Shown here one piece after another: positions 6,179 to 60,385 of a stretch of 64,000 nucleotides of DNA (its first letter is position 1; each line of letters opens with the position of its first letter). Where the stretch lies: positions 11,656,001-11,720,000 of the forward strand of contig JBHGNT010000004.1 of the NCBI GenBank assembly GCA_043228905.1. The letters run 5' to 3'. The notes under the pieces are model-generated. The model was given only the letters and a program-made list of their open reading frames with translations, did no database searches and was not told the origin of the DNA. The translations under genes and the position numbers were made by a program. The DNA is from Azolla caroliniana. Its lineage: Eukaryota > Plantae > Polypodiophyta.

Positions 6179-6601
6179 TGTCAGGAATAGTACTAAAGCA
6201 GAGATGGAATTAGTACTAAGAAGAGCAATACTATTAGTACTAAGAGGACGGGATTGCGTAAGATTCCCGAGAGAGAGATAGCGAGGATGAGAGAGAGAGA
6301 AAGATGATGACAACAACTAATATATTATGTGAAAAAGATAAGTACAAGCGGCTAAGAGGCTTAAGACTGGCGTTGAACCAATTTGGTTCAACATAATGCC
6401 TAGTGCCTTCTTTTATAGTGTTGTCAGGAGTAATCCTGAAACTTCTAGAATGTTCCAGAGAAATCTAGAATATACATTAATTTCTTATAATAAAACATAA
6501 ATGAAAATAATATCTTATGAATTACAATAGATGGTGTGATGGTTAAGAGCTCGACCCATATACCATAAGGTCATGGGTTCGAGTCTTTCCATATCATGAC
6601 A
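6179..6601 (-). repeat. 3' LTR of element B
   Basis: TGTCA...TGACA; near-identical to 11304-11750 apart from a 24-bp indel and a few substitutions. Confidence 0.95.
6525..6598 (+). promoter_or_regulatory. tRNA-like Pol III A/B-box cassette in the 3' LTR of B
   Basis: A box TGGTGTGATGG at 6532-6542 and B box GGTTCGAGTCT at 6576-6586, with tRNA-like 44-nt spacing. Confidence 0.7.
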
Positions 6602-6639
6602 CTACCTCCCCCTTAAAGACGACGAGTGGAACGAGTCAG

Positions 6640-9600
6640 CGTTGATTGCGGACCGGGTTTGTTCGGATACTTTCGGTGGAAATCAGCAAGCAGATCCTGA
6701 GCATTGGCAACATGCTCGATGGGTTCCCAAGTGCGTATTGGCAACATGCTCGACGGGTTCCCAAGTGCGTTCGCTCGGACTATAACCAAGCCAATCGACT
6801 AAATAATAAAGTTTGTTGCGAATAAGTTTGGAATCGAGGATGGCAGCAACTTCATACTCCGGGCCGGCGTCCAACTCCAGCGGGGGCGGCGGTGGTGTAA
6901 CACGATCGGGAATGGTGTTTGCTTTATAAGGTTCAAGAAGAGAACAATGGAAAACCGGATGTATCTGAAGCTGCGGAGGGAGATCAAGGCGGAATGTGAC
7001 ATCATTAACCTTACCCGTAATACAGAAAGGACCGAGTCGTCGATAATCCAACTTGTCGCACGGTCGAGTAGTCTTGATGTGACGACGTAAGAGCCATACT
7101 TGATCTCCGATGGCAAAAGAGGAGGGAAGCCGATGATGATCCGCGTAAGTCTTCTGTGTCTGTTGAGCATGATGAAGATGAGTCGAGAGATCTGTCTAGA
7201 TCTTGTGTAGTCTCTCCAAATGATCCCCGGCACGAGGATTGGTAGGTAGCTCCGGGGTGTCGATCACCGACCAACGAGGATGAGAACCGGTATAAGCGTA
7301 GAATGGGGAGACTCGAGTCGAGGAGTGAACAACATTATTATACGCAAACTCCGCAAAGTGGAAAATCTCGGCCCAATCGTCCTGTTGATAACTCAGGAAA
7401 CACCGGAGATATTGCTCTAGCGTTTGGTTTGTTCGTTCTGCCTGCCCATCGGTCTGAGGATGGTAGCCGGAGGAGAGGTTGCAAGAGACCTTGAGCATCT
7501 TGAAGAGATGCTGCCAAAATTTGGAGACAAATTGCGGTCCTCGGTCACTAATGATACTGTCTGGGAGGCCATGATGCCGAAATACCTCACGCATGACTAG
7601 GGCGGTGGTTTCCTCGCTAGTGATGGCCTTAGTACACGGGACAAAATGTGCCATCTTCGTATATCGATCGACGACGGTTAAGATAACATCGAACCCCTGC
7701 GAGACCGGCAAATCTGTGATAAAATCAAGACAAATAGACTGCCACGGCTTACTTGGAATCGGTAAGGGTTCCAAGAAGCCATATGGATGGTGTTGTGGCA
7801 TTTTTGCTCGACAGCAAGCATCATAGGTCCGAACGTAGTCGTCGACAAAACGGCGCATGTGGGGCCACCAAAAAGATCGTTGCACTAGCTCCAACGTCTT
7901 AGTACTACCGAAATGTCCCGCCGTACGGGAGTCGTGACAATACTGGACGATTTGAAGGCGACAGGAGCAATCGGGGACATATACACGCTTTTTAAAGAAT
8001 AACAAACCATCATGATATTCGAATTGTCGGTAGTCAATACCTGGTTGTTGAGACTGAGAACAGGATGCCCGAGAAGTATCAATGTGTGCCAGGATGCCCG
8101 AGAAGTATCAAGTTTGCACGTATGTCATCGGTAATCCGTGAATCCATCGGGGTGTGAAAAATCCGCGTCGTGTGCAATCGTGTTGGTCCCAAGATTACTT
8201 GCTTTTGATTATCAAATGTTGGATCACCAGGATGAGGTGCAAGATATGAACGCCGTGATAGTGCATCTGCTTTTCCTTGCTGCTTCCCCGGTCGATATGT
8301 GATTTTGAAGTCGAAACGCGTGAGGAATTGCGCCCACCGAGCTTGTCGTCGATTTAGTACGCGAGCGTTCCGGAAATAAGCAAGATTTTTATGATCACTA
8401 AAGACAATGACCTGATGTGGAGAGCCCTCTAAGAAATGCCACCATTGCACAAATGAATCCACAATGGCTAATAACTCCTTGTCATGTATTTCGTAGTTGA
8501 TTTCCGCGACATCGAATTTGCGCGAGTGGAAAGCCACCGGATGCAACTCTTCTTTATCTCCTTGTTGAGAAAGGATGCTACCAAGGGCGAAATCTGAAGC
8601 GTCGGCCTCCATGATGAATGGATTGTTGGTATCCACATGAGCTAGAATCGGTGCTGATGTAAAGGCTTTCTTAAGATGCCGAAAAGCCATATCTGAAGCA
8701 AAACCTAGAAAACATTGTACATCTCGTACCAACCGTGGAATTTGCCATTCTAGTACAGTTTGGACTTTAGCTGGATCCATGGCGATGCCCTTTGAGGAGA
8801 TGACATAGCCTAGAAATTCCACTTGCTTGCAGTCAAAGCTACATTTTTCTAGCTTGGCATAAAGACCATTCTCGCGGAGTCGCTTTAGTACTAATAGTAC
8901 ATGAGAATCGTGCTCTTGCTGGGTCTTCGAATAAATCAATAGATCAAACAGATATCCAAGAGGTCTCTGAATATATTATTTGCCATGTGTTGGAAGACGG
9001 CCGAACGGCATAATAGTATACTCGAAATGCCCATACTGCGTGCGAAAGGCGGTCTTTCATTCATCTCCCAGTCGGATCCGCACGAGGTTATACGCTCCTC
9101 GTAGATCAATTTTGGTAAAAAACTTGGCACCATTAACTCGCTCTAAAAGACTTGATATAAGAGGAAGTGCATACCTATTCTGGGTGGTGACCTTATTCAA
9201 TCCGTGGTAATCAACAACGAGACGAAGTGAGCCATCTTTCTTCTTGACAAAGAAGATGGGTGCACCGGCCGGAGATTTCGAATGACGGATGAACCCGCTT
9301 GCCAAGTTCTCCTCTATGTAGGCTCGAAGGACTTCTAACTCGGTGGGTGACAAGTTGTAAATTGGTCCCCATGGTGGCTCAGTTCCTGGTTGTAAATCGA
9401 TGGGATAGTCATAGGGACGGTGATGAGGAAGGGTACCGGCTTTTACCTTGTCAAATACATCGGCATAAGGATGATATTTTGCCGGAAGTTGTACTAAGGA
9501 GTCCTTCTTAATAGTGCTGGAAGGATGTATTGATATTGCAAATAGGAACATTGCCTCCTTGTGTCCTTCGCGTAATTGATGGAGTGAAATGGTCAAAACT

Positions 9601-10084
9601 CGGTGAGTAGATTCTTGGGGTGGTTGATATCGGACTTCTCTTGTTCTCTAATCTATGGCTGGATTATGGAATTCAAACCAAGGTAATCCTAGGACAATGG
9701 GATGCTCTAGACTAGAAATTATATTAAATGATATTACACACACAAAACTACCTAGGACAACTTGAATGGGTTCTGATTCTTCTACAATATTCCCGGAAGC
9801 AATGGGACGACCATCAATGACTACTACAGATGCGGGACAAGGAAGTTTTCTTAGGGATATCTGAGAAGCTTGGGCAACATTTCGATCCATGAAACAGGAA
9901 TTAGTTCCAGAATCTAAGAGTGCTAGGACGGGTACTGGGGAGTACTTTTAGTACTAACAATGACTTGGGCTAGGAACACATTGCTAACTTGCTTGGAAGG
10001 AATGGAACCACTAATGGGCTGTACAGATCTAGGGCTGATGTCCAACCAAACGACTCCTATTTTGGCTAGACTCAATCGTTTAAC
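6640..10084 (-). pseudogene. pol: pol of element B (PR-RT-RH-IN-chromodomain), disrupted
   Basis: ORF pieces 9648..9890, 9057..9596, 8079..8939, 7196..8005 and 6683..7051. Confidence 0.92.
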
Positions 10085-11229
10085 TCTTCATCTAATTGAC
10101 TAAGGATTTCAAATTTGTTTGAGATACTTGGGCTATTAGTACTATGAATACTATCTGACACTCTATTAGTACTATTAATACTATCAGACACTCCGAAGGG
10201 AAGAATTGACTCGGGTTTAGTACAGGCGACGATTTGATTTACCTGTCTTCTAGGCCTATGGGGACAATTGATGGCGATATGTCCTGGTCCACCGCAATAA
10301 AGACATAATCGATTGGCACATCGTCGTTGCTTTTCTTCTTCCGATAACGGGCCGCGTCGACGCATGGTGTCGATCTCCATCGGGGTCGGAATATTGACTT
10401 GAGGTACATCGCATGCAAACGGTCTAGCCGTGACTGAGGCGTATGTGGGTTCCGGCCGAGAGCGTGGTATTTGTAATTGACGTTCTGAACGCCGTTCGAA
10501 AAGGCGGTTGTCGCATCGGACCGCTCAACTGATTGCCTCTGTAAGAGACTTTGGTTCTTCGGGGAAGGTTAAAAGCAAATCTTTGACATCATTGTGCAAG
10601 CCGTAGCAAAACTGCTCCATGAGGGCTTGATCATCCCTGGAGATATCTGAGGCGAGTAGACGGAAAGCCGCCGCGTAGGCAGAGGCTGGACGATCGCCTT
10701 GACGCAATCTTCAGATCTTGTTGATCGCCGTCCTGATGTTGTTGGTATCTCCAAAGCAGGCTTTAAACTCACCAATAAAATCTTCAAAGTTATTAAGCAA
10801 GGGTGATTGTTTTTCTAGAAGCGGAGCGAACCATGCCAAGGCTGAGCCGCTAAGTAACGTGCCTATTAGGCCGACTCGAGATGCATTAGTGGGATATCGG
10901 GAAGGATGCATCTGGATGACTAAGCGTACCTGATTAAGGAATCCCCGGAATTGCGATCGCGTTCCATCAAATTTCACAGGAAGTCCAATCTTGGGCTCTT
11001 TATGAAATCCTTGGGGACTTGGTCCTTGTTGTTGCAACGCTGCTTCAAGTTGTTGTACCCGTAACACTAACTCCCCATGTTGTTGTTGCGTTTGTTGTTT
11101 TTCGAGAGCGATTTGTTGCAGATCCCCTATCAACCGTTGGTTTTCTTGTTCCAGGGCAACAAACTTTTCTTTTAGGCACTGTAACTCGGAGAAAACGGAT
11201 TGATATTCTTGGGCGATAATAGTAGCCAT
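10072..11229 (-). pseudogene. gag: gag of element B, disrupted
   Basis: KFDGTRSQFRGFLNQVRL, RQGDRPASAYA, MEID and a CCHC knuckle spread over ORF pieces. Confidence 0.9.
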
Positions 11230-11303
11230 AGTAGAGGGAAAAGGGTAGGAGGATGAGGGAGAACGACAAGTAGGCTGGAGGAAAGAAAAAAATTGGTTCA
11301 AAC

Positions 11304-11750
11304 TGTCAGGAATAGTACTAAAGCAGAGATAGAATTAGTACTAAGAAGAGCAGTACTATTAGTACTAAGAGGACGGGACTGCGTAAGATTCCCGAGAGAG
11401 AGGAAGTGAGAAGAGGAGAGAGAGAGATAGCGAGGATGAGAGAGAGAGAAAGATGATGACAACAGCTAATATATTATGTGAAAAAGATAAGTACAAGCGG
11501 CTAAGAGGCTTAAGACTGGCGTTGAACCAATTTGGTTCAACATAATGCCTAGTGCCTTCTTTTATAGTGTTGTCAGGAGTAATCCTAAAACTTCTAGAAT
11601 GTTCCAGAGAAATCTGGAATATACATTATTTTCTTATAATAAAATATAAATGAAAATAATATCTTATGAATTACAATAGATGGTGTGATGGTTAAGAGCT
11701 CGACCCATATACCATAAGGTCATGGGTTCGAGTCTTGCCATATCATGACA
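11304..11750 (-). repeat. 5' LTR of element B
   Basis: Pair of 6179-6601. Confidence 0.95.
11674..11747 (+). promoter_or_regulatory. tRNA-like Pol III A/B-box cassette in the 5' LTR of B
   Basis: A box at 11681-11691 and B box at 11725-11735. Confidence 0.7.
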
Positions 11751-18000: not shown

Positions 18001-19715
18001 CGGTGTTGCACGATACCGGATGTGGATATGCTAAGATGGATTGCATATGTAAAGTCGCTTAATCCGGAGATACGACACATCTCCGGAAAAGATAACGTGG
18101 TAGCAGATATGCTATCAAGGGCACGGTTCAGAGGAAACATAGCTGAATCCGATAATGAAGAAGTTTCCCAAAACTACGTTACTTCGGAGAACATATGCCG
18201 GGTGAACGTAATCCGAGAATTCCGGGAAGAAGAATACGAGGGAGAAAGTTTGTTGATCGGGAAAGTGCTACAAGAAATTGAGGAATCATCGGACAATAAA
18301 GAAAAGAGAGACGAGATCCGAAGTAAGAAGCCGCAAATCCAAAAGTTTTTCTTCAACAATGGATAATTTAATCTGTAGGGAGCCGAAAAGACCGAATGGT
18401 ATACCACTACGGGTAGTCGAAACAAAAGAGCAACAAAACCGGATAATGTCTGAATTTCACGAATCCGATTGGGCTGGATATCGGGGAACATGGGCAACAT
18501 TTGCGAAGATCAAACAAAAATATTGGTGGAAGAATATGTACAAAGATGTAGCGGAGTTCATGGAAAGCTGTGAGAAATGTCAAATCTACTCCGGAGTTCG
18601 ACACTGAGATGAATTACATCCGACATTCTCACCAACAATCAACTTCAAATGGATGATCGACATTGTGGCCATGCCAACCGGGATTGGACAAAAGAAATAC
18701 TTGGTGTTAGCCCGGGAAGATCTAACAAACCAAGTAGAAGGACGGGCATTACGGAGGAAAACATGTTCCGTAGTATACCAATTTCTCTTGGAAAAAGTGT
18801 TCTGCAAGTACGGGTGCATAGGACAAGTGATTGCGGATCGGGGAGAACTTGACTCTAATAAAGCTAGGGAATTCTTCGTCAGACATGGAGTACGGTTAAC
18901 ACTAACCACGGCATACAATCCGGAAGCCAACGGAAAGATCGAGCGAGGACATAGTCCAATCGTTAAAGCACTTGCAAAAGCATGCGACAGAAGGGTGAAG
19001 GATTAGCCATAGGTGCTTTCGTATGCACTATGGGCGGATCGCACGACGCATAGTTCCGTGACTGGTTATATGCCAGCTGAACTTATGACGGACAAGCACC
19101 GGTAATGCCGACGGAAACCACAATTGCAACATGGAAAGTACTATCATGGAAGGAAGAAATGAGCCGGGAAGAACTTCTAGCGGTCCGGATATGACAACTA
19201 GAGGGAAGACCGGAAGACATAGCAGAAGCGACATGCTGACAACAAGAAGCACGATTCTGGAACAAAAGTCGATTCGACACAAAGCATCGACTATGACCAC
19301 GAAAGATTGAAAAAGGAGATTGGGTGATCGTCTATGACAGTAGTTTGGATCATCAACATACAACGATACGGAAGTTTGCTAAAAGGTGGTTCGGGCCATA
19401 TGAGGTTCGGAAAGTTTTCAACAACGGAACTTACCGACTATGTGAGTTGGATGGAACAGTACTACGGGTGCCTATACTGGGGAAACGGCTGAAGATATTC
19501 AAGAACCGGACTGACGACGAACCTTATGTAAGCTTAGACAAGACCAACAACGAGGAGCAATCGGACAAAGATCGCGGTGATGCGGAAAGCGAAGAAAGTG
19601 GACTACAATTGATAATCGACATAAGGGAATCGGAGACTGCTACGGATGAAGGCGAATAACAAGCATCGGGAACTTCCGCACATACCGGAGGATGTGCGGG
19701 TTTGGAGGGGGCGAG

Positions 19716-20434
19716 TGTCATAGTGTAATTCACACACTACATGAAATATGTAAAAAAATATATCCAATTTAAGTACGCATAAATAAATAAAAGAAAATAT
19801 TAAAAGTATTGTTACATGTATAGGGCAGGGTTTGAACCTTATACCTCCATGTAAACAAATCCAAACTTTATCGTTGTACTAAGTTATCATAAGTGATCTA
19901 AATAATAGGTATAAGAGTTAAGAGTTATATTTACGCCTATTTTTACAAAAAAGTAAATCATGCACTTTGAGAGTGCGTGAAAACTTTATTTGGAAGAAAA
20001 TTGCAAGCCAATTACTCATGCACATCTAGTGTGCATGAGCACTATATTTAGGAAATCAAAAAACATGGTTGAAGAAGGCAACTCTTGCACATCTAGTGTG
20101 CATGAACACTTTAGGAAAAAGCATATGATGCTATGATTAGCCTCTTCCATCACTATATAAGGAAGAGAGAAAAGATGTATATGGTTGTTGTTGATTTTTT
20201 ATAAGGGTTGATTAATATAAAATATTCATGGGAATTCACGATTTTGCCATCTATTTCTCTCTTACAATCTAAGTATCAATTAATACACTATACTCGTGGG
20301 ATTCACGAATTTCATATCTCCATCTTGCAATCTATTCGTAACAAACCTTATCTCATATTCATCTTTCTCCTAGTCCAAAACCCCAACGGTTCCCACCCGA
20401 CTCACACAACGATCCGGCTTCGAAAGGCACGACA
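19716..20434 (+). repeat. 3' LTR of element C
   Basis: Starts TGTCA directly after the PPT; TATA near 20153; ends CACGACA where copia gag sequence begins. Confidence 0.85.
19818..19890 (-). promoter_or_regulatory. tRNA-like A/B-box cassette in the LTR of C
   Basis: Minus strand TAGTACAACGA (19881-19871) and GGTTCAAACCC (19838-19828), 43-nt spacing. Confidence 0.55.
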
Positions 20435-29562: not shown

Positions 29563-30761
29563 ATCATTGTAATATTCTTTGTATTACAATGTATGGCTTA
29601 ATGGTAAGGCTTCAAGACTACTCGCCCATGCGATAAATTGGACTATCAACAATTCGGTCATTTCCATATTATCGGAAAAATAAATGATGTCGTTTTTCGT
29701 CTCGATCTAACTCCGCAACTACAGATACATCCGGTGTCGTGAAGATTTCCGACTACGGTGAGAAAACCGGGAGGGACAAATAAAATGGGGATGTGCAACA
29801 TTGCACATGCACTTGTAAATTTGTATAATGAGAATAAGATAACAAAGTGTAAAGTGAAGGGTAATAATGTAAGGTGCTAAAGGTGCACCACAAAGTTCAT
29901 TGAGGCATAAAGGTGATGTGTACTTTGTAGGCTAGAGAGAGGTACATGAAGAATGAGTGTAGGGAGTAGTGGGCATTGAGTATGATGGCAAGAGGGGAGG
30001 GAGTTAAGACCCATCAATTTCACCCCCCCCAAGATCGAGGTCAAATATTCTCCTTTGAAAGAAAGGGGATTTGACCACTCCCTTTGTATTGTGCCTCACC
30101 CCTTACTACTATAAAAGGGAGTGAGGGGTCACTTGTGAAGGGGTTGCCTATTTTTTAGTGTGAAAGGTATACCACACTTATCCGGTTAGGGTTTCTTGTA
30201 GTCGTTGGGTTTTGTCCTATGCCGCCATGGTTGTATTCGTTTGTGTTTTCTTAATATAACTTGTTGAGTATTTTGCCTCCATCCATCTCTTGTTCAATCT
30301 TCATGTCATATTCATTCTCCTCTCCTCTTGAGCTAAGCTTCTTTCTTGTGTCTTATTCCTTCTCCTCAACTCCCTAGTCCAAGGCCCCCATGGTCCCGCC
30401 TCGGATCCTACACGTACTTGCGGAATACCGCGACACCGGTTTTTCATAGTTCTCTTATCGAACCGTATCAAGACAACACTATTCCGAATCGTATTACACA
30501 ACCTCCTCCCCCGATCGAGCTTGAAGTAGGCCCAAAGTATGAAATAGTTTCCATCCTCGATTCCAAGATTGTTCGCAACAAGCTCTACTATTTGGTCAAT
30601 TGGCTTGGCTATGGTCCAAGCGAGCATACTTGGGAACCAGTCGAGAATGTGGTAAATGCTTGAGCTCTTGTTGAGAACTTTCATCAGCAATATCCCGACA
30701 AGCCAAGTCCTCCATCTAAGAAGACTCATAACACTCGTCGTCTTAAAGGGGGGGGGGGGGA
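29563..30761 (+). mobile_element. Chromovirus patchwork G, left part (inverted LTR bit, integrase tail, chromodomain, PPT)
   Basis: KTTRPCDKLDY..HPVFH..YEIVSILDSK..TWEPVENV, closely similar to element B; G-run PPT at 30748-30760. Confidence 0.85.
29735..30435 (+). mobile_element. Solo LTR of a C-like gypsy, 701 bp, with 4-bp TSD CCGG
   Basis: TGTCG...CGACA; TATA near 30110; removing the LTR plus one CCGG restores H-P-V-F-H. Confidence 0.92.
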
Positions 30762-35266: not shown

Positions 35267-35277
35267 TTGATCTCCTT
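35267..35277 (+). promoter_or_regulatory. Self-priming PBS of J (no tRNA PBS)
   Basis: TTGATCTCCTT is the exact complement of AAGGAGATCAA (35147-35157), 32 nt after the TATA at 35115. Confidence 0.8.
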
Positions 35278-35756
35278 CTTTCCTTCTTTCTTAATACACT
35301 ATCATGTCACAATGATCTAGTAATCTTGAGCAAATTTTGGCAGTCGTGCAACAACTCCAACATGAAAATGCAAACTTGCGAAACTCTATTCAAGAACTTC
35401 AGGCAGCCACATTGGTTATACCTCACTTAATTGTTGATCCTTATGTTGTAGAACCCAATGTCAGCTTGCTAGAAAAATTCGATGGAACAAGGTCATGGCT
35501 AAGAGGTTTCATCAACCAAATCCGCCTTATTATTCATCTTCAACCCCGGCGCTATTCTGATGACTTTCGACAAGTTGGGCTCATCGGCACGTTGCTGACA
35601 AGACAAGCACAAGCTTGGTTTGCCCCTCTAGTGGAGACCTCTTCACCTCTCTTGAATGACTTCCAAGAATTTCTTACCAAATTTGAGGCAACTTTTGGGG
35701 AGACCGACAAACGATGAGCCGCACTCAACAAATAATATGTTGGGAGACAGGTCCCT

Positions 35757-36185
35757 TTGGATGGTGTAGACCTCGTGAGAACCGGATGAGGAGTACCCGG
35801 CTACGGAGAGCCGGATGGTGCAGACCCGGTGAGAACCGGATGACGAGTACCTAGCTACGAAGAGCCGGATGGTGTAGACCCGGTGAGAACCGGATGAGGA
35901 GAACCCGGCTACAGAGAGCCGGATGGTGCAGACCCGGTGAGAACCGGATGAGGAGTACTCGGCTACGGAGAGCCCGATGGTGCAGACCCTGTGAGAACCG
36001 GATGACGAGTACCTGGCTACGAAGAGCCAGATGGTGTAGACCCGGTGAGAACTGGATGAGGAGAACCCGGCTACGGAGAGCCGGATGGTGCAGACCCGGT
36101 GAGAACCGGATGAGGAGAACCCGGCTACGGAGAGCCAGATGGTGCAGACCCAGTGAGAACCGGATGACGAGTACCCGGAAACGGA
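35757..36185 (+). repeat. 54-bp tandem array (about 8 units) in the 5' LTR of K
   Basis: Unit ccggatggtgcagacccggtgagaaccggatgaggagtacccggctacggagag. Confidence 0.95.
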
Positions 36186-39100
36186 AGACCCGACGAGAAC
36201 CGGATGGCCAGTACCCGGCAAGCACCGGATGATGCAGGCCCGGTGAGGAGTGCTCACCGGATGAAGAGACATATTCGTAAATATGTTTCTGAGAGTCCAT
36301 CGAGGCTATATTTGTAAATAGCCGAAAAGTCATATTATTAAAAATATGACATGGGGCAAACTGAGAAGGATATAGTTGTTGTCATTTCTTGTTGGCGCAA
36401 GAGATCAGAGCGCGTAACTGTGTACAGAGAGAGAGAGAGAGGACGAGGTCGTTGCCTCTGTTGTAACCGCCGCCTGTGGCGAAGATAGAAAGCTCGAGGT
36501 TGTTGCCTCGGTGCTTTACTGTTGTACACTGTAACATAGTGATAGTTTGCAGCCTGTGGGCTGCCGTGGTTTTTCCCTAGTTTGGGTTTTCCACGTAAAC
36601 ATCCTGTGTACTCTTCTCTTCATTGTGTCGTGCATTCATTCCTGTTTTTTGTGTATGATTCTAAGCTCGGTTGTGGCCAAGCGTTGCGCATAGGGGACGT
36701 ATAGTTCCCATCAAGTGGTATTAGAGCGAAACGACACAGAAAATGGATGATTCGTTGGGAGGCATGTTCAAGCTCACCGGCTCCAACTATTCGGTGTGGA
36801 AGTCGAAGATGAGGGACATGCTCGTGGTTAAAGATATTTGGTTGCCGGTTCAGTTTGGGGACAAGAGACCAGACAAAATCGACGCTACGATATGGGAGGT
36901 GATGCACATGAAGACAACGGCTTACATACGGTGCTTCATCGACATGAGCCTATACAACAACTTCAATGAAGAGAGCAAGGCTCATGACCTCTGGGAGAAG
37001 ATCGGCATTATGTTTCAGAACAAAAATGTTGTTAACTAGGTTTCGGTATTCCGGAAGCTAGTAAGACTCCGGTACCAAGATGGCTCTAGCATGGCGGAGC
37101 ACATGAATGCCTTCCAGGGGCTGATACACCAGGCAACATCATTGGAAGTACCTCTCGCCGATGAGGTACTAGCGCTACTCCTGCTCGGTTCCCTCCCGGA
37201 TAGTTGGGAGACGTTGGTTGTCACTTTGGGCAACGCCGGGCCGGAAGGGAAACGGTTATCCCTATCAAGAGTGAAGTCGAGCTTGCTAGATGAGGAGGCC
37301 CGTCGGAAAGATAAGGATACGACCTCCAACTCCAAAGCGCTCCTTACCAAATCGAAACGCGGAAGACAAAGAAACCATAGTCCCCAGAACCTGGAGAAGT
37401 CGGGGACACAGTCAAAGTCAAGGGGAAGACCTACTTGCTTCTATTGCGGCAAGCCGGGACACTTCCAAAAGAACTGTCGGCATTTCCGAAAAGACAAGGA
37501 AACCGACGGTACCGATTCGAAGCGGACCCCGGACCGGAACGGTAAAGACCGGAGGGGGCCGGACCGGAAGGGAACGACGGCAATCACGGCAAGTGAAGAA
37601 GAGTTGATGCTCATCACCGAGGAGAGTGAGATAAACCTTGCCGACGACGAGATGACCTGGGTGGTAGACTCCAGAGCGTCGTTCCACCTTACCCCAGACC
37701 GGAAATGCTTCTCATCCTACTCAACCGGTGATCACGACTGTGTCCGGATGGGGAATGAAGGTACATGCCGAATTGTCGGCATAGGAGACGTGTGGCTGAC
37801 AACACCAAGTGGATGCAAGTTGTTGTTGAAGGATGTCTGACACGTTCCGAAGGTTCGACTTAACCTGATATCAGCTGGTCGGCTAGATGATGAAGGCTAC
37901 ACGGGTAGCATCTAGAACGGTGTCATGAAGTTCTGCAAAGGGAGCCTCATTGTGGCTCGGGCCCGGAAGTTCAACACACTGTACCTGATGAATGCCCGGT
38001 TATGTCCGGAGGAAGTGAACGTGGCATTCGACACTGCAAGTGAGCTGTGTCACATGAGCGAGAAGGGGATGAAGAGGCTTGCAGACGACAACCTCATTCC
38101 AGTGAAAAACGTGCACTTGGAGAAGTGCACTGATTGTCTGGCTAGTAAGCAAAACCGGACCTCCTTCCGACCAAGGCCACCGACGAGATGTAATGCACCA
38201 CTGGAGTTGGTGCATACTGATGTGTGTCAAGTGGACACAAAGTCACATGCAGGATCGTAGTACTTCGTGACGTTCATAGATGACCACAGTCGGAAGCTGT
38301 GGGCCACACCGTTGAAGACGAAGGATCAGGTGCTATCCGTCTTCAAAGAGCTCCACGCGAGAGTGGAAAGAGAAACCGGCTGGAAGCTGAAGGCGGTTCG
38401 AGCATATAACGGAGGTGAATACCGGGGGCAGTTCGAGGAGTACTATCGCTCGAAGGGAATCCGGCTCAAATTTACCGTGCCGAAGACGCCGAAACTAAAC
38501 GGGCTAGCCGAGAGGATGAACCGGACCATAATGGAGAGGGTCCGGAGTATGCTAGCGCATGCAAAACTACCCAAGAAGTTTTGGGTTGAGGCACTGTCGA
38601 CGGCGACATATGTGATAAACAGATCACCCTCAGTACCCTTGGACGGAGACACGCCACAGAGAGTCTGGACCAGTAAGGAAGTGTCCTACCGGCATCTGAA
38701 AGTATTCGAGTGTCTTGCGTATGTGCATGTAGCTAAGGACCGGAGAGGAAAACTAGATCCGAAGACCCGGCCATGCATATTCCTCGGTTACGGCGACGAT
38801 GAGTTCGGCTACCGAGTGTGGGACCTGGTCGAGAAGAAGGTATTCCGGAGTCGAGATATTATCTTCATGGAGAACAAGACTCTTTCCAACTAGGAGTCGG
38901 AGAAGAAGATAATGAACTCCGAGTCGACCGGTAAGGATCGATTCTACGATGAGCAGACCCAACCGGCAAGAGACCGGTTAGCACTCGAGGGACCAGCCGG
39001 TTACGGTGAGGATACCGAACAGGCTGAAGAAGAAGTTGAGGAAGCTGAAACCGGAACCGGCCAAGACCCCGAATCGGATTCGAATGAAGAGCAAATGGAG

Positions 39101-40790
39101 GAGCCGGTTACCGAAGCCCAAAGACGGAGATATCCTCTCAAAGAGAGAAGGGCCCCCCGGAGATTTCCGGATGCAGAGCATGTTCTGCTGATCGATGAGG
39201 AGGAGCCGGAAAGCTTCGAAGAAGCGAAGGATGACACCCACAGCCGCAAATGGTTAAGTGCCATCCAGGATGAGATGGATTCCCTGCACGAGAACCATAC
39301 GTACGAATTGGTGGAGTTGCCGAAAGGAAAGCGGGCACTCCGAAACAAGTGGGTGTACAAGTTGAAACTGGGAGATGCCGGCAACCTCCCAAGATACAAA
39401 GCCAGGATCGTGGTGAAGGGGTTCCAGCAGAAGAAGGGCGTGGACTTCGACGAAATATTTGCCCCGGTAGTAAAGATGACCTCCATCCGGACGGTGCTGA
39501 GTATAGCAGCAAGCATGGACCTCAAGGTAGAGCAGCTGGACGTAAAGACGGCATTCCTTCACGGTGACCTCGAAGAGGAGATCTACATGCAGCAACCGGA
39601 AGGATTCGTGGAGAAAGGGAAGGAGCACTTGGTTTGCCGGTTGAAGAAGAGCCTGTACGGACTGAAGCAAGCTCCCCGACAATGCTACCGGAAGTTCGAC
39701 TCCTTCATGACCGATCAAGGGTACCACAAGACGCAGGCCGATCACTCTGTGTTTGTGAAGAAGTTTGAAGGAGGCGACTTCCTGATACTCCTTCTGTACG
39801 TGGACGACATGTTGATCGTCGGACGGGACCTTCTCAATGAAAGGCTCTCAACCGGACCTTCTCAATGAAAGACTTGGGTCCGGCAAGACAGATGTTGGGG
39901 ATGCATATCATCCGGAACCAGCCAATGAAGCAACTGTGGCTGTCACAGGAGAAATACATGACAAAGGTGCTTCAGCGGTTCAACATGTCAGATGTGAAAC
40001 CGATCGGATCGACACTTCCGGCAAACTGCAGGCTATCCGGTAAGCAAAGCCCAAAGACAAAAGCAGAGAAGATGGATATGATGAAGTTTCCAAATGCCTC
40101 TGCCGTCGGGAGCTTAATGTACGCAATGGTTTGTACCCGACCGGATATAGGATACACAGTCGGAGTGGTGAGCCGATTTATGAGCAATCCCGGCAAGGAG
40201 CACTGGAACGCAGTCAAATGGATACTCCGGTACTTCAAGGGCACTACCAATATGTGTCTCCGATTCGGCTCCGGAAAACCTCAACTTGACGGTTTCACCG
40301 ATTCGGACATGTCGGCTGATGTGGATACCAGCCGGTCTACATCCAGGTATGTAATGACATATGCAGGGGCAGTTGTATCGTGGCAGTCGAGGCTGCAGAA
40401 GACGGTTGCATTGTCAACCACGGAGGCGGAGTACATGGCGGCTGTGGAAGCCGGCAAGGAAATATTATGGATGAAGGACTTCATCGGAGAGCTCAGTATC
40501 CGGCAAGATGAATACCGGCTCTATTGCGACAGTCAAAGTGCCATCCACCTTGCTAAGAATGCGGCCTACCATTCCCGGATGAAGCATATCCAGCGAAGGT
40601 ATCACTGGATCCGGGAAAGAGTAGATGACCAGGAGTTCGCACTGACGAAGATCCACACGGCCGAGAACGGGTCAGATATGCTGACCAAAGTGTTGATACC
40701 CGACAAGCTGGATGCATGCCGGAAGCGGATCGGACTAGTAAGACACCCCATGCCGAAGTGAAGGGGGAGTTTGTTGGGAGACAAGTCCCT

Positions 40791-41056
40791 CCGGATGGTG
40801 TAGACCCGGTGAGAACCAGATGAGGATTACCCGGCTACGGAGAGCCGGATGGTGAAGACCCAGTGAGAACCGGATGAGGAGTACCCGGCTACGGAGAGCC
40901 GGATGGTGCAGACCCAGTGAGAACCGGATGACGAGTACCTAGCTACGGAGAGCCGGATGGTGTAGAACCGATGTGAACCGGATGAGGAGAACCCGGCTAC
41001 GGAGAGCCGGATGGTGCAGACCCGGTGAGAACCGGATGAGGAGTACCCGGAAACGG
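40791..41056 (+). repeat. 54-bp tandem array (about 5 units) in the 3' LTR of K
   Basis: Same unit as in the 5' LTR. Confidence 0.95.
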
Positions 41057-43225
41057 AAGACCCGACGAGAACCGGATGGCCAGTACCCGGCAAGCGCCGG
41101 ATGATGCAGGCCCGGTGAGGAGTGCTCACCGGATGAAGAGACATATTCGTAAATATGTTTCTGAGAGTCCATCGAGGCTATATTTGTAAATAGCCGAAAA
41201 GTCATATTAGTAAAAATATGACTTAGGGAAAACTGAGAAGGATATAGTTGTTGTCATTTCTTGTTGGCGCAAGAGATTAGAGCGCGTAACTGTGTACAGA
41301 GAGAGAGAGAGAGAGAGGAAGAGGTTGTTGCCTCTGTTGTAACCGCTGCCTATGGCGAAGATAGAAAGCTCGAGGTTGTTGCCTCGGCGCTTTACTGTTG
41401 TACACTGTAACATAGTGATAGTTTGCAGCCTGTGGGCTGACGTGGTTTTTCCCTAGTTTGGGTTTTCCACGTAAACATCCTGTGTACTCTTCTCTTCACT
41501 GTGTCGTGCATTCATTCCTATTTTTTGTGTATGATTCTAAGCTCGGTTGTGGCCGAGCGTTGCGCATAGGGGACGTATAGTTCCTGTCACAATATGTGTT
41601 ACAACAAGGCGATCGTGTAGCATCAATCTATGCATCCGAATTTCGTCAGCTCGCGTGTGATGTCGAGTGGGACGGACAAGCCCTCCTCGATCAATTCCGC
41701 CGAGGATTACGAGGTGAAATAAAAAATCTTTTACTTAATTTTCCTGAGCCCACATCTTTGAATGAGTCTATTTCCCCAGCTGTGCGCTACGATAACCGTC
41801 TCTTTGAGTTCCGGCAAGAGGAACGTCCTCACCGGATCCATCCACCTTGGCCAGCCGCTACCCGAAGTCACCAACCATGGTTGATGACACTGCCTCCTAT
41901 GTCATCCTCCACTTCATCTTCAACTCCCGTCATAGATTCTAGCTCGCCAATGGAGATCGATCAAATTCTCTATCGACCATTGACTAATGCGAAACGACAA
42001 CATCGACGGGCCAACAATTTATGGCTCTATTGTGGCGGCGCTGACCATTTCATCCGCTCTTGCCCAAAAAAGGGACCCCGTCAAACACCACATCGTGTGG
42101 ATGGGGTTGACATTTTGGGCCAACAGGAAAACTCCAATGTCCAGTTGCAGTAGGGGCTGTGCATCTGGGCCACAAGAGTCGACAATTATGTCAAGGGCCC
42201 AATCAACCGACTTCCTCAACAACAAGTTTCACGATTCCGATCACTCTTGAGTTTGGCTCAACCACTCTGAAGACAAAAGCTTTATTGGATTCTAGGGCTA
42301 CGTCATGCTTTATTGACATCATGTTTGCACGAAAACACAACATTCCAAGCAACAAATTAACCGTCCCAATTCCAGTTGAAGTGATCGACAGTCGAACACT
42401 CTCTTCTGGTGTCATCACAAATACAACAATTCCCTTGGGTCTCCACATAGGAACCCACCAGGAAGAAATCACTTTTAACCTCATCACATCACCTCGACAT
42501 CCTATCATCTTGGGGTTATCATGGCTCGAAACTCACAATCCAGTTGTGGATTGGCGATCTCGCTCCATCAATTTCACCACAAATTTTCACTCACAAGGTA
42601 TTACGTCCACCCTTCTTCGAACCAATGCTCCGCCATTTGTTTGGACGCCTACTCCAATGAGGATCGTCTCAACGGTTGCTCCCACTCATGTTTTGGGGAC
42701 AACTCCCATTTCTGCTCCAGTGAGAACCACATCAATGGTTGCTCCGATTCCAGTTTCTGTCCAATGAGGACCGCGTCAACGGTCGCTCCCACCCATTTTT
42801 CAAGGGCAACTCCCATTTCTGCTCCGGTGAGGACCAAGTTATCGGTCACTCCCATTTCCTCTTCAGCGAGAACCATGTTAGCGGTTGCTCCAATAGAAAC
42901 AACATCGATAGTTAGTCCCGTGTCAGCCTCAAAAACAGTTCCAACTCTTGCTCAAGTAAGCGATGCAATGCTGATTGCATCCATTTCTAATTCTAAGGAC
43001 ATGGCAGTCATGTCCACTCTAGATACTACCCTATGTACTAGCTCTTTTCCATTAAAATACAATGATTTCTCTAATGTATTTGAGAAGAAAAATGTTGATC
43101 GCCTACCCGAACATCACCCATACAATTGTCCGATTGACTTGAAAGATGGTGCTTGTCTTCCATTTGGCCCTATCTATGGCTTATTTGAACCTGAACTCAA
43201 GACCCTCAAAATATACATTGAAGAG

Positions 43226-49049: not shown

Positions 49050-49960
49050 AAGAGAATCTCGCAAAGGGATTCATTCGACACTCAAAATCTCCAGTTGGCT
49101 CTCCTATTCTATTTGTCAAAAAGAAAGATGGAACGTTGCGCCTATGTATCGACTATCGCAGGCTCAATCGAGTCATCGTTTGAAACCGCTATCCACTACC
49201 TCTAATTCCCGAACTCCTCGACCGACTTCGGGTTGGGCGTATATTCTCCAAAATCGATCTCAGAGGCGCCTACAACTTGGTGCGTATCAAGCCTGGAGAT
49301 GAGTGGAAAACGACATTTCGAACCAGGTATGGGCATTTTGAATACATGGTAATGTCATTTGGTCTCACAAATGCTCTTGTCATTTTCTAGCATATTGACG
49401 GGAACTACAACGCTCCTTATACGCAACGCTCGGCCACAACCGAGCTTAGAATCATACATAGAAAACGGGAAATAAAGAATGCACGACACAAAGAAGAGAA
49501 GTGTACACAAGATGTTTACGTGGAAAACCCCAAACTAGGGAAAAAACCACGGCAACCCACATGCTGCAAACTATCACTATGTTTGAATGTACAACAGTGA
49601 GTTCACGGAGGCAACAACCTCGTGCTCACGGTCTTCGCCACATGCGGCGGTTACAACTGAGGCAATGACCTCTTCCTCTCTCTCTCTCTCTCTGTACACA
49701 ATTACGCGCTCTGATCTCACGCAGACAAGAATTACAACAAGCACAAAAGGTTTGCCCTAAGTCATATTTATACTAATATGACTTTTTGGCTATTTACAAA
49801 TACATCCATGATGGACTCTCAGAAACATATTTACGAATATGTCTCTTCATCCGGTGAGCACTCCTCACCGAGTCTGCACCATCCGGATTTCCATAGCCGG
49901 GTACTCCTCATCCGGTTCTCACCGGGTATGCACCATCCGGCTCTTCGTAGCCGGGTTCTC

Positions 49961-55280: not shown

Positions 55281-58200
55281 TTCTCCTCATCCGGTTCTCA
55301 CCGGGTCTACACCATCCAGCTCTCCGTAGCCGGGTACTCCTCATACGGTTTCGGCCGAGGCCGAGTATGTTCATCAGCACTGTTCTTCTCTCTTCCCATC
55401 CAGAGGGACCTGTCTCCCAACACATATGATGAATGACATCTTCCGAGAATATCTAAACCAATTTGTGGTCATCTATCTCGACGACATACTTATCTTCTCA
55501 CAGGACTACATAGAGCACACCAAGCATGTTCGACTTATCTTGACCAAACTTCGGGAACATAAACTTTATGCGAAACCCAAAAAGTGTGAGTTTGATCGAA
55601 CCTCAGTTGAATTCCTCGGGTATGTCATTTCATCTTATGTTATCACTATGGACGAGAAGAAAGTCGAAACGGTTCAATAGTGGGAAGTCCCCACCAGGGT
55701 CAAGGATGTGCAATCATTTTTGGGTTTTGCCAACTTCTATTGTTGATTCATTCAAGGATTCTCTACTTTGGCGCAACCACTTATAGCACTCACTCAGAAG
55801 GATTCCCCTTTTTGCTGGACTCCCACAACCCAACTAGCATTCGAGACACTAAAAAAATCTTTTACCTCGGCTCCGGTACTTCTACACCCAGATCTGACCA
55901 AACCATTTACGATTAAAACTGATGCCTCTGACTTCGCCATCGGTGCCATTCTCTCTCAATCAGATAACAATGGGATTCTTCATCCTGTTGCCTTTTATTC
56001 TCGGAAGTTCACACCTCCCGAGATCAACTACCCAGTTTATGACAAAGAACTCTCTGCCATTATTGCAGTCTTTGAAGAATGGCGTCCTTACTTAGCAGGC
56101 ACCCAACACCGTGTCCAAGTGGTGACCGATCACAAGAACCTTGTCTACTTCACCACTACTCGCATTTTGAACCGGAGGCAAGCGCGTTGGTCGACCTTCC
56201 TGGCTGACTATGACTTTCAAATTGTTTTTCGTCTCGATGCCCAACATGGTAAAGCCGATGCCCTATATCGGCATTTGGAATTCGAAATTCGACCAGGAGA
56301 TGAGACCTACAATCAACAATCACGTTGTCTCCTACAGCCACATCAGATTCAGCTCTTTGCAGCTTATATGGGTGCAGATGAATCATTACTCAATGCAATA
56401 GTCATAGATACTGCCACCAACAAATTTGCAAAAGAAACTAAGGATAATCAAGTCAACAAATCAACCATAAAGGAGGTATGGAATAGTCAAGAAAAATTTA
56501 TGTTTCGAGATGGGTTTTTTTTCGGAACACCTTAATGTATGTCCCAGATGGTCCTTGTCGTATCCATATCATGAAGGAATGCCATGATGACGCCCTAGCT
56601 GGACATTTTGACATTGCAAAAACTTTGGAGTTAATCTCTAGAAGTTATTGGTGGCCACAACCTTGGAAACTTGTTAAACAATTTGTGAAAACATGTGATA
56701 CATGTGCCCGCGCCAAAGCAGTACATCATCATCCCTATGGTCTACTTCAACCTTTGCCAATTCCAAGTAGGCCATGAGCCTCCATCTCGATGGATTTTAT
56801 CACCGACCTTCCCGACATTGAGGGATTCAATTCAGTATTAGTGGTGGTGGATAGATTCACAAAGATGGCACATTTTATTCCATGTTCTAAAGCAATTTCA
56901 GGGATGGAAACAACAGATCTATTGTTAACAAATATTGTGCGCCTTCATGGTTTACCGGATGACATTATCTCTGATTGTGGTCCCCAATTTATGTCTCATT
57001 TCTAGAAGCGCCTCTTCCAGACTCTTGGAGCTTCCACAAAATTTTCAACAGCCTTCCATCCTGAGACTGATGGCCAAACGAACAAGTAAATCAGATCCTA
57101 GAGCAATATCTCCGATATATGATAAGTTATCAACAAGATGATTGGATCAAATTTCTTCCAATGGCTGAGTCCGCCTACGACAATACTTTCCACACATCAA
57201 CTAGTGTAACACCCTTCTTCGCAAATTATGGATTCCACCCACGCTTTAGTATAACTATCCCTGCTGGTTCTGTGAATCCATCTGCTAAAGAACGAGCTCA
57301 TCTAATGAAAGAAGTGCATCATGACCTATCCCTAGAACTCTCAATTGCTCAAGAATGACACAAAGAGAAGGTTGATCAACATCGACAGGTTGCGCCTGAT
57401 TTTAAAGTCGGTGACATGGTATGGCTTGGCATATTCCGACAACTCGCCCATGCAACAAACTTGATTACAAAAAGTTGGGGCCATTCCGCATCATTGATAA
57501 AGTTAACATTGTGGCTTTCCTTCTTGCTCTTCCATCACACTACCGAATTCACAATGTCTTCCATGCATCACTTCTTGAGCTCTATCATCCATCCTCAATT
57601 CCAGGAAGAAGCATCGAGCCACCTCCCCTTGGGGCTTTGGCGACCGGGGATGAGTATGAAATCGAGACCATTCTGGACTCGCACAAGAGCCGACGAAAGC
57701 TCCAGTATCTGGTATTGTGGAAAGGATATCCCATCTCTGAGGCTACATGGGAACCCACTAGAAATTTACTAAATGCCCCGGAAGTGGTTCATGATTTTCA
57801 TCTCCGATATCCTCACAAACCCGCACCTTCTTGAAGTCGGCACTTAAGGGGAAGATAATGTCATGAACATCAAGTTGAATGTGAACCTTAGGCCCTTGTA
57901 TATATATTTCTCCTAGATAAACTTTAGACTTCAAACCTTTGTATAAAGAGTGATATGTAAGACCTAGTATGTAAGACCCAATATGTAAGACCCAGTATGT
58001 AAGACTGAGTATGTAAGACTTGCATGCAAGAATTAGTATGCTTGATATTATATTATGTAAGACTTGGCATGAGCATGCTTATCATGCATCACTACATGTA
58101 TAAAAAGGGTTGATCTCCCTTGTTAACATCAAGGAGATCAACACCAGTCATGGAATAGATATTCGTACTCATTGTCATCAATTTATCCATCTCTCTATCT

Positions 58201-59620
58201 CATCAATTTACCCATCTCTTTGTCTTCCAATTGTTCATCCGTGACACATTCTTGGTATGAAGATAAGTTGGAATCATAATCAACGACAATTATTTCTATC
58301 TCAGTCCAACTACATTGGATGTGTCCTCGAACACTTCAACATGGAATCGGTGAAATCTGCCTCTACCCCGCTCCCTATTCATACTCGGCTATCTCAGTGA
58401 GACTGCCCGACATCCAGTCCGGAGGGGGAAATTATGAAGTCGGTACTGTATGCACCGACAGTTGGCTCCCTAATGTACGCAATGGTGGCGACACAGCCTG
58501 ATATCACTCATGATGTTGGAGTCATCAGCAGATTTATGCATAATCCTGGCCGATCGCACTAGAATGCAGTCAAGCATGTGTTTAGATGTTTGATGGGCAC
58601 AAAAGACCTTGGTATTCTATTTGGCCCGAACGACATCTCAGGCGTAGTTGGATACACTGACTCAAACTTTGCAAGTTGCATAGACAGTCATAAATCGACA
58701 ACTAGATATTGTTTTAAACTCGACAATGGAGCGATCTCGTGGAAATCGAAACTTCAGGAGTGCACCACCATATCAGCGATTGAGGCCGAATACGTAGCCA
58801 CGTCCGATGCGGCAAAATAGGCCTTATGGCTTGGTTGGTTGGCATGCATATTTCGACAAGCCGAAATCAGCTCGGCTCCAATTGTTTATAGTGACAATCA
58901 GGGTGTCATTGTTCTATCAAAAAATCTGGTTCATCACAATGCCTCCAACCATATCGACGTTCGATATCATTTCGTTCAGGACTGCGTCATTATAGGGAAA
59001 ATCGGTCTAGAGACAATATCGACAACCGATAATGTCGCGGACACATTAACCAAGTGTCTTTCGGCAGATCGATTTGGATCCCTTAGGCAACACATGGGCA
59101 TAATGAAGAATCAGTTTGATTAAATCGGACACTCGGGATGATCTTTGGACACCAAACTTTGGTTGTTCGGAACTTTGTATCAATCTGTATTATATACTCA
59201 TTCTGATTACAGATTTCGGATGTATACGCTCATTACGGGGGAGTGTTGGATACGGGTTTCTAATGGACATATTCACACTATCTCCTTTTTTTAACACACT
59301 ACACTTAGGCTACTTATGTAAATAGTGAGAAGAGCAGTTGCCCTAAGTTAGTCAGTATATAAACTAACTTTGTAACCTAGTTACTTTTTTGGTTGTTCAT
59401 TTTGTAAAAGTTGTAATAAACTTCCTTGACATAGGGCCTACTTGTCTTTGACTCTCTCTCTTAGAAGACGTTAATACATCTTTCTTTCTTTCTTTCTTGC
59501 ATATGAGTTGTTTTCTTTTCTGTCTTTGCTATTATCATAGTTGTGATCTTGCATCCATTTACGATCTTATCCTAGAAGAGTGTTGATCTTGTTCCGCATT
59601 AGAGGACAATGTTCCCAATA

Positions 59621-60385
59621 GGGGGGGGTAACGTCATGATATAGCATGATATGGCTTCAAAAGGATTTGAACCCATCACCTTGTGTCACATGGGTTGAAG
59701 CCTTACCATTAAGCTATACATTGTAATACCGAATGGCATAACCGTATACTCGAAGTGCCCATTTCTTGTGTGAAATGCGGTCTTCCATTCTTCTCCTGGT
59801 CAGATCCGTATGAGGTTATATGCTCCTCGCAAGTCAATCTTTGTGAAAAACTTTGCACCATTGATCCATTCTAAAAGACTTGAGATAAGGGGAAATGCAT
59901 ACCTATTCCTGATGGGGACCTTATTCAAGCCACCGTAATCTACGACAAGACGAAGTGATCCATCCTTTTTCTTGACAAAGAAAATGGGTGCGCCGGCTGG
60001 AGATTTTGAATGTTGAATGAAACCGTTTGCCAAATTCTACTCTATGTAGGCTCAAAGGACTTCTAGCTCGGTTAGTGACAAGTTGTAGATCGGTCCCCAT
60101 GGTGGCTCTTTTCCCAGTTGTAAATCAATGGGACAATCATATGGTCGGTGGTGAGGAAGTGTACTGACTTGTACCTTATCGAACACGTTGGCATAATGAC
60201 GATACTCCTCTGGAAGTTGAACTATGCATTCCTCTTTAATGGTGTTGGAAGGTTTTACTGATACTGTGAAGACAAACATTGCTTCCTTGCATCCTTCCTC
60301 ACACAATTGTTGTAGTGAAATGGTTGCAATCCTATGAGTAGGTCCTTGGGTTTGTCGATACCTGATTTCTCTTGTTCTCCAATCT
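59621..60385. mobile_element. Chromovirus patchwork G, right part (PPT remainder, LTR start 59632-59729 on +, PR-RT fragment on -)
   Basis: cgtcatgatat resembles the start of the B LTR; 59730-60385 encodes [35 protein letters not shown] on the minus strand. Confidence 0.85.
59652..59725 (-). promoter_or_regulatory. tRNA-like A/B-box cassette in the LTR of G
   Basis: Minus strand TAGCTTAATGG (59716-59706) and GGTTCAAATCC (59673-59663), 43-nt spacing; both boxes are close to consensus. Confidence 0.75.

Follow-up and report, generated by a model that had tools for sequence, protein, structure and literature searches.

The window, a stretch of 64,000 nucleotides from Azolla caroliniana, includes a Tcn1-type chromovirus of 5.6 kb, here called element B (6179..11750, minus strand), with LTRs at 6179-6601 and 11304-11750 and a 5-bp target duplication in which 4/5 letters are alike. 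An earlier reading of this DNA, made from the sequence only, had described the LTRs of interest as belonging to coding gypsy elements. Indeed, B retains all gypsy domains (gag, RT, RNase H, integrase, SH3 and chromodomain), but its frames are broken into pieces of 150-303 aa. Its primer-binding site (11291..11303, minus strand) is complementary to an LTR arm at 11521..11532 (minus strand; twin at 6372-6383) and not to a tRNA 3′ end, so that this arm is predicted to act in Tf1-type self-priming. A TATA-like box at 11559..11567 (minus strand; twin at 6410-6418), about 115 nt inward of the A box described below, probably marks the sense (Pol II) promoter, judging from its position.

Three further elements are relevant. 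Element G is not intact: its 3′ LTR is a remnant of the first 95 nt (59632..59726, plus strand) that follows the polypurine tract (PPT), is broken by an inversion and is joined to an inverted RT piece. A 35-nt duplicate of its A-box region sits at the other inversion breakpoint (29581..29615, plus strand), and a copia element inserted in the PPT separates the LTR from the piece that codes for the G chromodomain (30436..30657, plus strand). Element C, a gypsy element without a chromodomain, contributes its 3′ LTR (19716..20434, plus strand), its 5′ LTR being outside the window. In element J the look-alike noted earlier, GGTTCACATTC, was recovered from both LTRs about 18 nt from the tip; this B-box remnant occupies 57877..57887 (minus strand) in the 3′ LTR, which starts at 57859, with a twin at 34920-34930, and no A box accompanies it. 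B, G and J fit the Tcn1 chromoviruses in having a chromodomain with an aromatic cage at the integrase end, self-priming complementarity and no tRNA primer site, and are assigned to them on these features, the trees being built from database loci. The cage residues of the chromodomain are present, and its best solved matches are HP1/CBX and SUV39H1.

A box search of the window returned the four A/B-box pairs that the sequence-only reading had reported, at the same positions and on the same strands. The cassette in the 3′ LTR of B (6525..6598, plus strand, antisense to B) comprises an A box (6532-6542), an AGGT block and a B box (6576-6585), while the cassette in the 5′ LTR (11674..11747, plus strand; A box 11681-11691, B box 11725-11734) points into the flank; the spacing is 44 nt in both. 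The G cassette (59651..59723, minus strand) has an A box (59716-59706) and a B box (59673-59664) with 0 mismatches each, spaced by 43 nt, and a T4 run directly after the B box. Similarly, the C cassette (19816..19888, minus strand) has its A box at 19881-19871 and its B box at 19838-19829, a spacing of 43 nt, with a T4 run 33 nt from the B-box start. All four pairs are antisense to their own element and point outward, and all lie near the LTR 5′ end as proposed, the A box starting 70 (B), 85 (G) or 166 (C) nt inside LTR starts set at 6601 and 11750 (B), 59632 (G) and 19716 (C). Four box pairs reach a score of <=1 in the window as compared to 0 in each of 20 Markov simulations; the B box alone is near chance level, with 5 matches against 2.4 expected. 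Eight copia and three further gypsy LTR starts in the window, some of them approximate, gave no pair (best score 6); these three gypsy LTRs are relatives of C's lineage. Upstream of the A box in the 3′ LTR of B, where a CAA starts 7 nt before the box, lies an AT-rich block (6472..6524, plus strand; 88% A+T) that is a predicted landing zone for TFIIIB, a role suggested by excerpts of PMC13578239.

The cassette is not a functional tRNA gene, since its cloverleaf is unrecognised by tRNA finders: ARAGORN returned 0 tRNAs in the window and 28 loci, and the best match to the Rfam tRNA model scored 11.6 bits (locus L037) against a cut-off of 29, with no match for B. What it does possess is the arrangement of a type-2 Pol III promoter, an A and a B box at tRNA-gene spacing.

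We selected chromovirus loci by their SH3-chromodomain protein alone, independently of LTR content, and obtained 56 scorable LTR starts, 19 of them in the two clades to which B/G and J belong and 37 outside. An antisense pair at a score of <=5 occurred in 16/19 in-clade LTRs, as compared to 4/37 outside (the 19 in-clade loci all come from one assembly series and include several near copies, so that they represent about 11-12 independent families); at a score of <=3 the counts were 9/19 and 0/37. None of the four outside matches among the 37 LTRs combined a spacing of 43-46 nt with a position <=50 nt from the tip. In all carriers the pair is antisense and its spacing is 43-46 nt; the B box lies 17-50 nt from the LTR tip in the 16 in-clade carriers, and this distance ranges over 7-50 nt among the chromovirus LTRs as a whole. 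The carrier families are deeply split (pol 50-78% identical), and blastn gave no LTR match in the cassette region between distant families; a profile made from six distant families detects B (E 3e-7), G (4e-8) and L037 (4e-4). Within the pol coding sequence of L004 the profile gave weak matches that were discounted as chance. In six carriers the pol frame runs without a stop for 1,044-1,235 aa. The locus L016 is cassette-free and J/L021 hold a B-box remnant only; their pol frames are still long (965 and 1,075 aa), which indicates that the module is dispensable. A single origin for the B/G and J clades has a tree support of 0.25.

Presence in two distant gypsy lineages, one chromoviral and one the non-chromoviral lineage of C, was also borne out, and no relatives of C appeared among the viral contigs or the collected chromovirus loci. 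Across four runs, the two letters needed for a complete A box are present in 87-99% of the contig depth of the C family, and T at B-box position 60 in 97-99%, so that most contigs fit both boxes better than the window copy does; at C56 of the B box, 23-47% of the depth has T instead. In the B family the letter completing the A box is found in 48-75% of contig depth. An ordinary SINE insertion would find no room for a body and tail in the chromovirus LTRs, given the short distance from B box to tip, and the cassette is family-wide in both the B and C families; a T-rich stretch in C is a possible tail. Free-standing copies of the cassette were absent from the 382 kb of sequence searched. The in-clade LTRs and the contigs of the C and B families support the view that the boxes are integral to U3 throughout these lineages of coding gypsy elements, as opposed to stray insertions.

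The boxes had been thought to stay near consensus between B and G while the rest diverged. Between these two alone the boxes do not exceed the linker (A box 7/11, linker 23/32 and B box 8/10 identical), and the excess over neighbouring U3 is seen only across more distant families. For 13 representatives, mean pairwise identity was 0.75 in the B box, 0.73 at tRNA positions 44-48 and 0.54 in the A box, the box values being inflated by anchoring the alignment rows on the boxes, as compared to 0.32 in the linker and 0.32-0.34 in the flanks, which is background. G53, T54, T55 and A58 are invariant in 13/13 representatives, and the AGGT block, which corresponds to variable-loop letters of a tRNA and lies outside the boxes, is conserved as strongly as the B box. 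There is no consensus fold across cassettes. Cloverleaf pairing is marginal (51% versus 48% in shuffled sequences, a level also reached by 25 and 35 of 500 shuffles), and one pair of the D stem covaries (CG 7, UA 7 and UG 4 of 19). The AGGT conservation and this co-varying pair hint at a possible role at the RNA level. B-family cassettes fold as a long hairpin with z of -3.9 and -4.1 (2/11 folded sequences); L006 has a z of -2.0, and the rest are above -1. With respect to promoter anatomy, the 90-140 bin is the most AT-rich of six LTR bins in 7/8 carriers, no TATA or CAA recurs at a fixed distance across families, and no T4 terminator is shared, the first T4 falling at +11 to +130 and being absent within 400 nt in 4/20.

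Primer sites complementary to the element's own LTR were found in B, J, L004, L009, L016 and L021, and these Tf1-type self-priming sites imply that the cassette is not the primer of these chromoviruses. Cassette RNA as a reverse-transcription primer was ruled out, as the primer site changes together with the LTR arm and not with the cassette.

Pol III promoters or tRNA-like stretches are known from Drosophila mdg1 and from the U3-R region of HIV-1, respectively. A close likeness is to the Helenus/TRIMp3 elements, whose LTRs, as described in excerpts of PMC10886601, contain a tRNA-derived sequence that is conserved around boxes A and B and is not a working tRNA; one Helenus family is known from Selaginella (Kojima 2024). 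Both LTRs of B likewise hold conserved A and B boxes of tRNA origin. Helenus elements, however, are non-coding, 311-1,263 bp long and tRNA-primed, whereas the cassette carriers are coding, self-priming and keep a TATA box; moreover, the tRNA part is in sense orientation in three Helenus LTRs and is thought to transcribe the element, whereas here it is antisense and at the U3 tip. According to the same excerpts, a likeness to tRNA is seen in 'not a few' Repbase LTRs, with only short elements followed up. They also describe Cassandra/Ajax TRIMs, of which Cassandra is a plant element with a long-kept Pol III promoter in both LTRs, but these are non-autonomous elements whose promoters derive from 5S and transcribe the element itself. 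Foamy viruses, which are autonomous LTR retroelements, carry A/B-box Pol III units in U3 that demonstrably affect replication (excerpts of PMC3993851 and PMC7693620); their product has a conserved hairpin and terminator, whereas the cassettes share neither fold nor terminator and have tRNA-gene geometry. The Tcn1 clade of non-seed plants resembles our carriers in its cage-type chromodomain, missing tRNA primer site and predicted self-priming (excerpts of PMC6317226, PMC2864245 and PMC3350952), and no Pol III or tRNA-like component of Tcn1 LTRs is mentioned in the available text of the first two, where 'polymerase III' has 0 occurrences. Thus, Pol III cassettes in LTRs are already known from Helenus, Cassandra and foamy viruses, and the antisense layout at the U3 tip of coding gypsy elements is without precedent in the literature searched.

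The sequence-only reading had offered two roles for the boxes, TFIIIC-bound barriers against spreading silencing or sources of antisense Pol III RNA, acquired in two gypsy lineages. The built-in U3 part, the two lineages and the fit to a promoter read at the DNA level have stood; the antisense-RNA branch is weakened by the lack of a shared fold and a shared terminator. That reading had left aside two systems treated here, the tRNA-pairing U3 segments of Ty3 and the Pol III cassettes in the U3 of foamy viruses. Our preferred reading, to which we give about an even chance, is that a tRNA-derived A/B module at the outer tip of U3, antisense in many coding gypsy families, is likely a TFIIIC site at the DNA level and likely helps to keep the element's promoter open. 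A promoter read as DNA fits both the lost cloverleaf and the AT-rich block just upstream; TFIIIC binding and the anti-silencing role are inferences. TFIIIC on the boxes would position TFIIIB over the AT-rich block that separates the cassette from the Pol II TATA box, and at the 5′ LTR the complex would face the flanking DNA. Elements with an HP1-like chromodomain are predicted to land in heterochromatin, and for this reason a barrier of the tRNA-gene type or a nucleosome-poor patch would favour their transcription, while any Pol III traffic, given the backward-facing cassette, would be directed away from the Pol II promoter. A single capture of a tRNA, a SINE head or a Helenus-like piece could spread through a lineage because U3 is copied to both LTRs in each cycle. 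Barriers of tRNA genes and TFIIIC, with A/B boxes bordering silent chromatin, are established in yeast and animals (excerpts of PMC9540200, in which no description of such action in plants was found), but those are host loci protecting host genes, whereas the module here would be carried by a mobile element for its own use.

An RNA-level alternative is that sense RNA downstream of the PPT pairs with the T arm, variable loop and D arm of host tRNAs and so aids dimerisation, packaging or strand transfer. Ty3 has a similar layout, in which U3 beside the PPT pairs with two arms, T and D, of the tRNA used as primer (excerpts of PMC5371799), and docking of this kind would account for the antisense orientation, the site beside the PPT and the conserved AGGT block. 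In Ty3, however, the same tRNA primes, whereas the self-priming chromoviruses listed above have no tRNA primer to bridge and match no single tRNA arm; the priming argument covers these chromoviruses and does not extend to C, whose primer site lies outside the window. Moreover, G53, T54 and T55 are invariant though G-U wobble would free them, the outer T-stem positions match no actual tRNA arm even if wobble is allowed (purine-pyrimidine 11 and 7 of 19), and the AT-rich block is left unexplained, so that we regard tRNA docking as unlikely. Production of an antisense Pol III RNA, as a small hairpin or read-through transcript that tunes the element or host genes in the manner of the foamy virus U3 miRNA cassettes, draws on the complete promoter anatomy, the B-family hairpin, the T4 directly after the B box in G-type copies and the viral precedent itself. 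Nonetheless, that hairpin is confined to one family, the transcribed letters outside the boxes are not conserved and, with no common terminator, transcripts from the 3′ LTR would run antisense into the integrase gene; we consider such an RNA source quite doubtful.

The boxes might also be a neutral relic of a tRNA, SINE head or Helenus-like LTR that inserted backwards into an ancestral U3 and was carried without function. The loss in L016, the partial loss in J/L021 and, in many C copies, the decay of a CpG within the B box agree with this, but boxes and 43-46 nt spacing persist across families with pol 50-78% identical while linker and flanks are at background, and the varying distance from B box to tip shows that indels are common next door. 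The relic explanation is thereby largely refuted and in our estimate very improbable. Equally improbable is a landing pad, in which the boxes would recruit TFIIIB/C and draw tRNA-gene-targeting elements, or the element's own integrase, to the LTRs. Ty3-type targeting of Pol III promoters is established, but no insertion lies upstream of the A box in either LTR of B or in that of C, and attraction of insertions would be a consequence of binding more than the carrier's reason to keep the boxes.

A broader form of the TFIIIC reading, which we advance tentatively and hold possible at best, is that heterochromatin-seeking retrotransposons carry their own TFIIIC-recruiting barrier to shield the promoter, gained at least twice in one plant host (in a chromovirus and in a non-chromovirus gypsy lineage), and would scatter thousands of TFIIIC sites. 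To the question of how chromoviruses stay transcribable after landing in heterochromatin, the B box offers one possible answer, and as a conserved 10-nt target for mutation at the LTR tip it lends itself to a direct test. The cassettes would extend Pol III promoters in LTRs from short non-coding to coding elements, which runs counter to the expectation, stated in the excerpts of PMC10886601, of little LTR sequence in common between such elements and their autonomous partners. If TFIIIC does bind, a high-copy family of this kind would supply TFIIIC sites in large number to a plant genome, a setting in which such barriers are little studied.

The window consists of nested gypsy and copia elements, its only named protein match being to the moss Ceratodon purpureus (57% identity), and no tRNA genes were found in it. 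From this match, and from leaf and plant samples among the metagenomes with matching sequence, the host is probably a non-seed land plant. The sequence-only reading had placed four tRNA-like A-box/B-box pairs in its gypsy LTRs. All four were confirmed, antisense and outward-facing, in both LTRs of B (6532/6576 and 11681/11725), in G (59716/59673) and in C (19881/19838). When pairs spaced 41-48 nt were scored against a consensus, with 2 per B-box mismatch and 1 per A-box mismatch, four in the window scored 1 or less versus none in 20 Markov simulations. B is a complete chromovirus (6179-11750) with broken reading frames, and its two LTRs are 9 substitutions apart. G, also a chromovirus, is disrupted by a copia insertion in its polypurine tract (PPT) and by an inversion that truncates its LTR at 95 nt. 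This 30-kb internal inversion has a 35-nt duplication at its breakpoints (29581-29615 and 59695-59729) and one junction at a few letters common to LTR and RT; the RT-to-integrase part of G is missing. C lacks a chromodomain, and only its 3′ LTR lies within the window. A small GC-rich hairpin directly upstream of the PPT is common to C (19675-19715) and element A (about 4045-4085). A 54-nt unit made up of 25+29 nt sub-units is arrayed in copia LTRs at 35649-36326 and 40683-41198, and LTRs related to these have it too (21565, 26398 and 49750-49960).

The boxes had also been held to stay conserved between B and G while the rest diverges; the linker proved equally alike, so this pair alone is no evidence of selection. 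Relatives were collected in a single scan of metagenomes using an SH3-chromodomain alignment, keeping the best 79 of 547, with two further loci from viral contigs. A script located 58 LTR starts, of which one was excluded as implausible (L047); two were added by eye (L002 and L054) and three with less than 85 nt were left out, so that 56 of 81 loci were scored. In chromodomain-region and pol trees 19 of the 56 fall into two clades, one with B/G and one with J, another chromovirus of the window; as they come from a single assembly series and include near copies, they count as about 11-12 families. All 13 B/G-clade loci, but just 3 of the 6 that group with J, reached an antisense score of 5 or less, and these carriers share a box spacing of 43-46 and a B box 17-50 nt from the LTR tip. 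L054 has a weaker cassette that scores 7 and whose B box lies 7 nt inside the tip, the family of J itself (L021) keeps only a B-box remnant, and the scored LTR of L016 has no cassette. Among the 37 LTRs outside both clades, four scored 4-5 and none 3 or better, and none had carrier-type spacing at the carrier-type place, a criterion chosen post hoc with the data already seen. An extra cassette, antisense to its own LTR and absent from the profile training set, lies in a solo LTR within L012; this LTR (3780-3860) is of the L017-type family and sits backwards in an integrase gene. A sister group without the cassette (L019, L020 and L040) has short U3 repeats in the first 200 nt of the LTR, which are antisense, B-box-like with two mismatches, present in multiple copies and possibly of chance origin.

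Thousands of contigs from four runs cover the 3′ end of B, and the A-box-completing letter appears in 48-75% of depth in the B family (among the matches listed, 40 of 291). For the C family (among the matches listed, 40 of 160), both A-box-completing letters appear in 87-99% of depth, T at position 60 in 97-99% and a CpG change at C56 in 23-47%, where contig depth is not copy number. The shares at the A box and position 60 make the box match a trait of C's family. Depth falls about twentyfold between LTR tip and cassette, and three C-related LTR starts in the window lack the cassette; it is therefore likely restricted to one subfamily of C's lineage.

Mean pairwise identity over 13 representatives, in rows anchored on the boxes and hence with inflated box figures, was 0.75 for the B box, 0.73 for tRNA positions 44-48, 0.54 for the A box, 0.52 for the six letters after it and 0.32-0.34 for linker and flanks. 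The AGGT block and the letters following the A box, both excluded from the search pattern, point to ancestry in a tRNA whose variable loop was short. Profiles built without their target recover B, G and L037, and C only weakly (E 0.017-0.24). Fold and pairing analysis found no cloverleaf retained across cassettes, and tRNA finders placed them below threshold. Some pairing persists, mostly intact, at the three inner positions of the T stem and at one position of the D stem. In the B/G subgroup the linker resembles an inverted copy of the B-box region (window 6547-6590; L001 5056-5129; L012, L023, L002); B thereby gains a long hairpin (z about -4), and G-type copies gain a further motif resembling the B box. 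What by eye is a decayed fragment of a non-LTR (LINE-type) reverse transcriptase lies at 1-700, and such elements could have provided a tRNA or SINE retrocopy.

Six carrier contigs hold stop-free pol frames of 1,044-1,235 aa. In B, J, L004, L009, L016 and L021 the site following the 5′ LTR is complementary to, and co-varies with, an LTR arm downstream of the TATA box. Therefore, the cassette is ruled out as primer, the predicted self-priming sites matching the arm, and it is unnecessary for producing the element's RNA. Pairs include 11291-11303 with 11521-11532 and 35265-35277 with 35147-35158 in the window, and others in L004, L009, L016, L021 and L022. Such complementarity is predicted for Tcn1 in PMC6317226, and PMC2864245 states that no priming signal had been found in SM-Tcn1; the co-change across families lends comparative support to Tf1-type self-priming in plant Tcn1-type elements.

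We consider it very probable that the cassette is a real, selected, tRNA-derived module within coding gypsy LTRs. As the strongest rival for its role, U3 may serve as a docking site for a tRNA, as in Ty3. The AGGT block fits this rival, but the carriers' predicted self-priming sites, the broken T stem and letters that are invariant both where wobble would be tolerated and where it would not argue against it. In its predicted working the cassette parallels the promoter segment of Helenus, but its carriers differ in coding capacity, orientation and primer and are not Helenus members. That a Pol III unit located in U3 can be of consequence to an autonomous element is shown by the foamy viruses (PMC3993851 and PMC7693620). 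Full-text, mostly non-subscription literature, with Tcn1 papers covered in their main text, yielded no report of antisense tRNA boxes in LTRs of Tcn1 or other coding plant gypsy elements; Repbase has further tRNA-like LTRs (PMC10886601).

For action on DNA through TFIIIC, to the benefit of the element's promoter, the sequences suggest roughly even chances. In plant tRNA genes TFIIIC binds the A and B boxes and an upstream AT-rich or TATA-like stretch serves TFIIIB (PMC13578239 and PMC3082873). The carriers possess an AT-rich stretch of this kind: in 7 of 8 carrier LTRs, A+T peaks in the 90-140 bin out of six. Its median there is 0.78 for 9 carriers and 0.56 for 30 other LTRs, but host base composition confounds the comparison. 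No TATA, CAA or terminator is common to the carrier families. The cassette is thus best described as a predicted TFIIIC-bound module whose transcript would be of little importance. A chromodomain that has the cage residues and is similar to HP1 and SUV39H1 predicts that these elements insert into heterochromatin. A specific barrier role, reasoned by analogy with yeast and animal barriers (PMC9540200), is a more tentative proposal that we hold rather doubtful; an element landing in heterochromatin would benefit if the outer edge of its 5′ LTR formed a barrier or an open patch.
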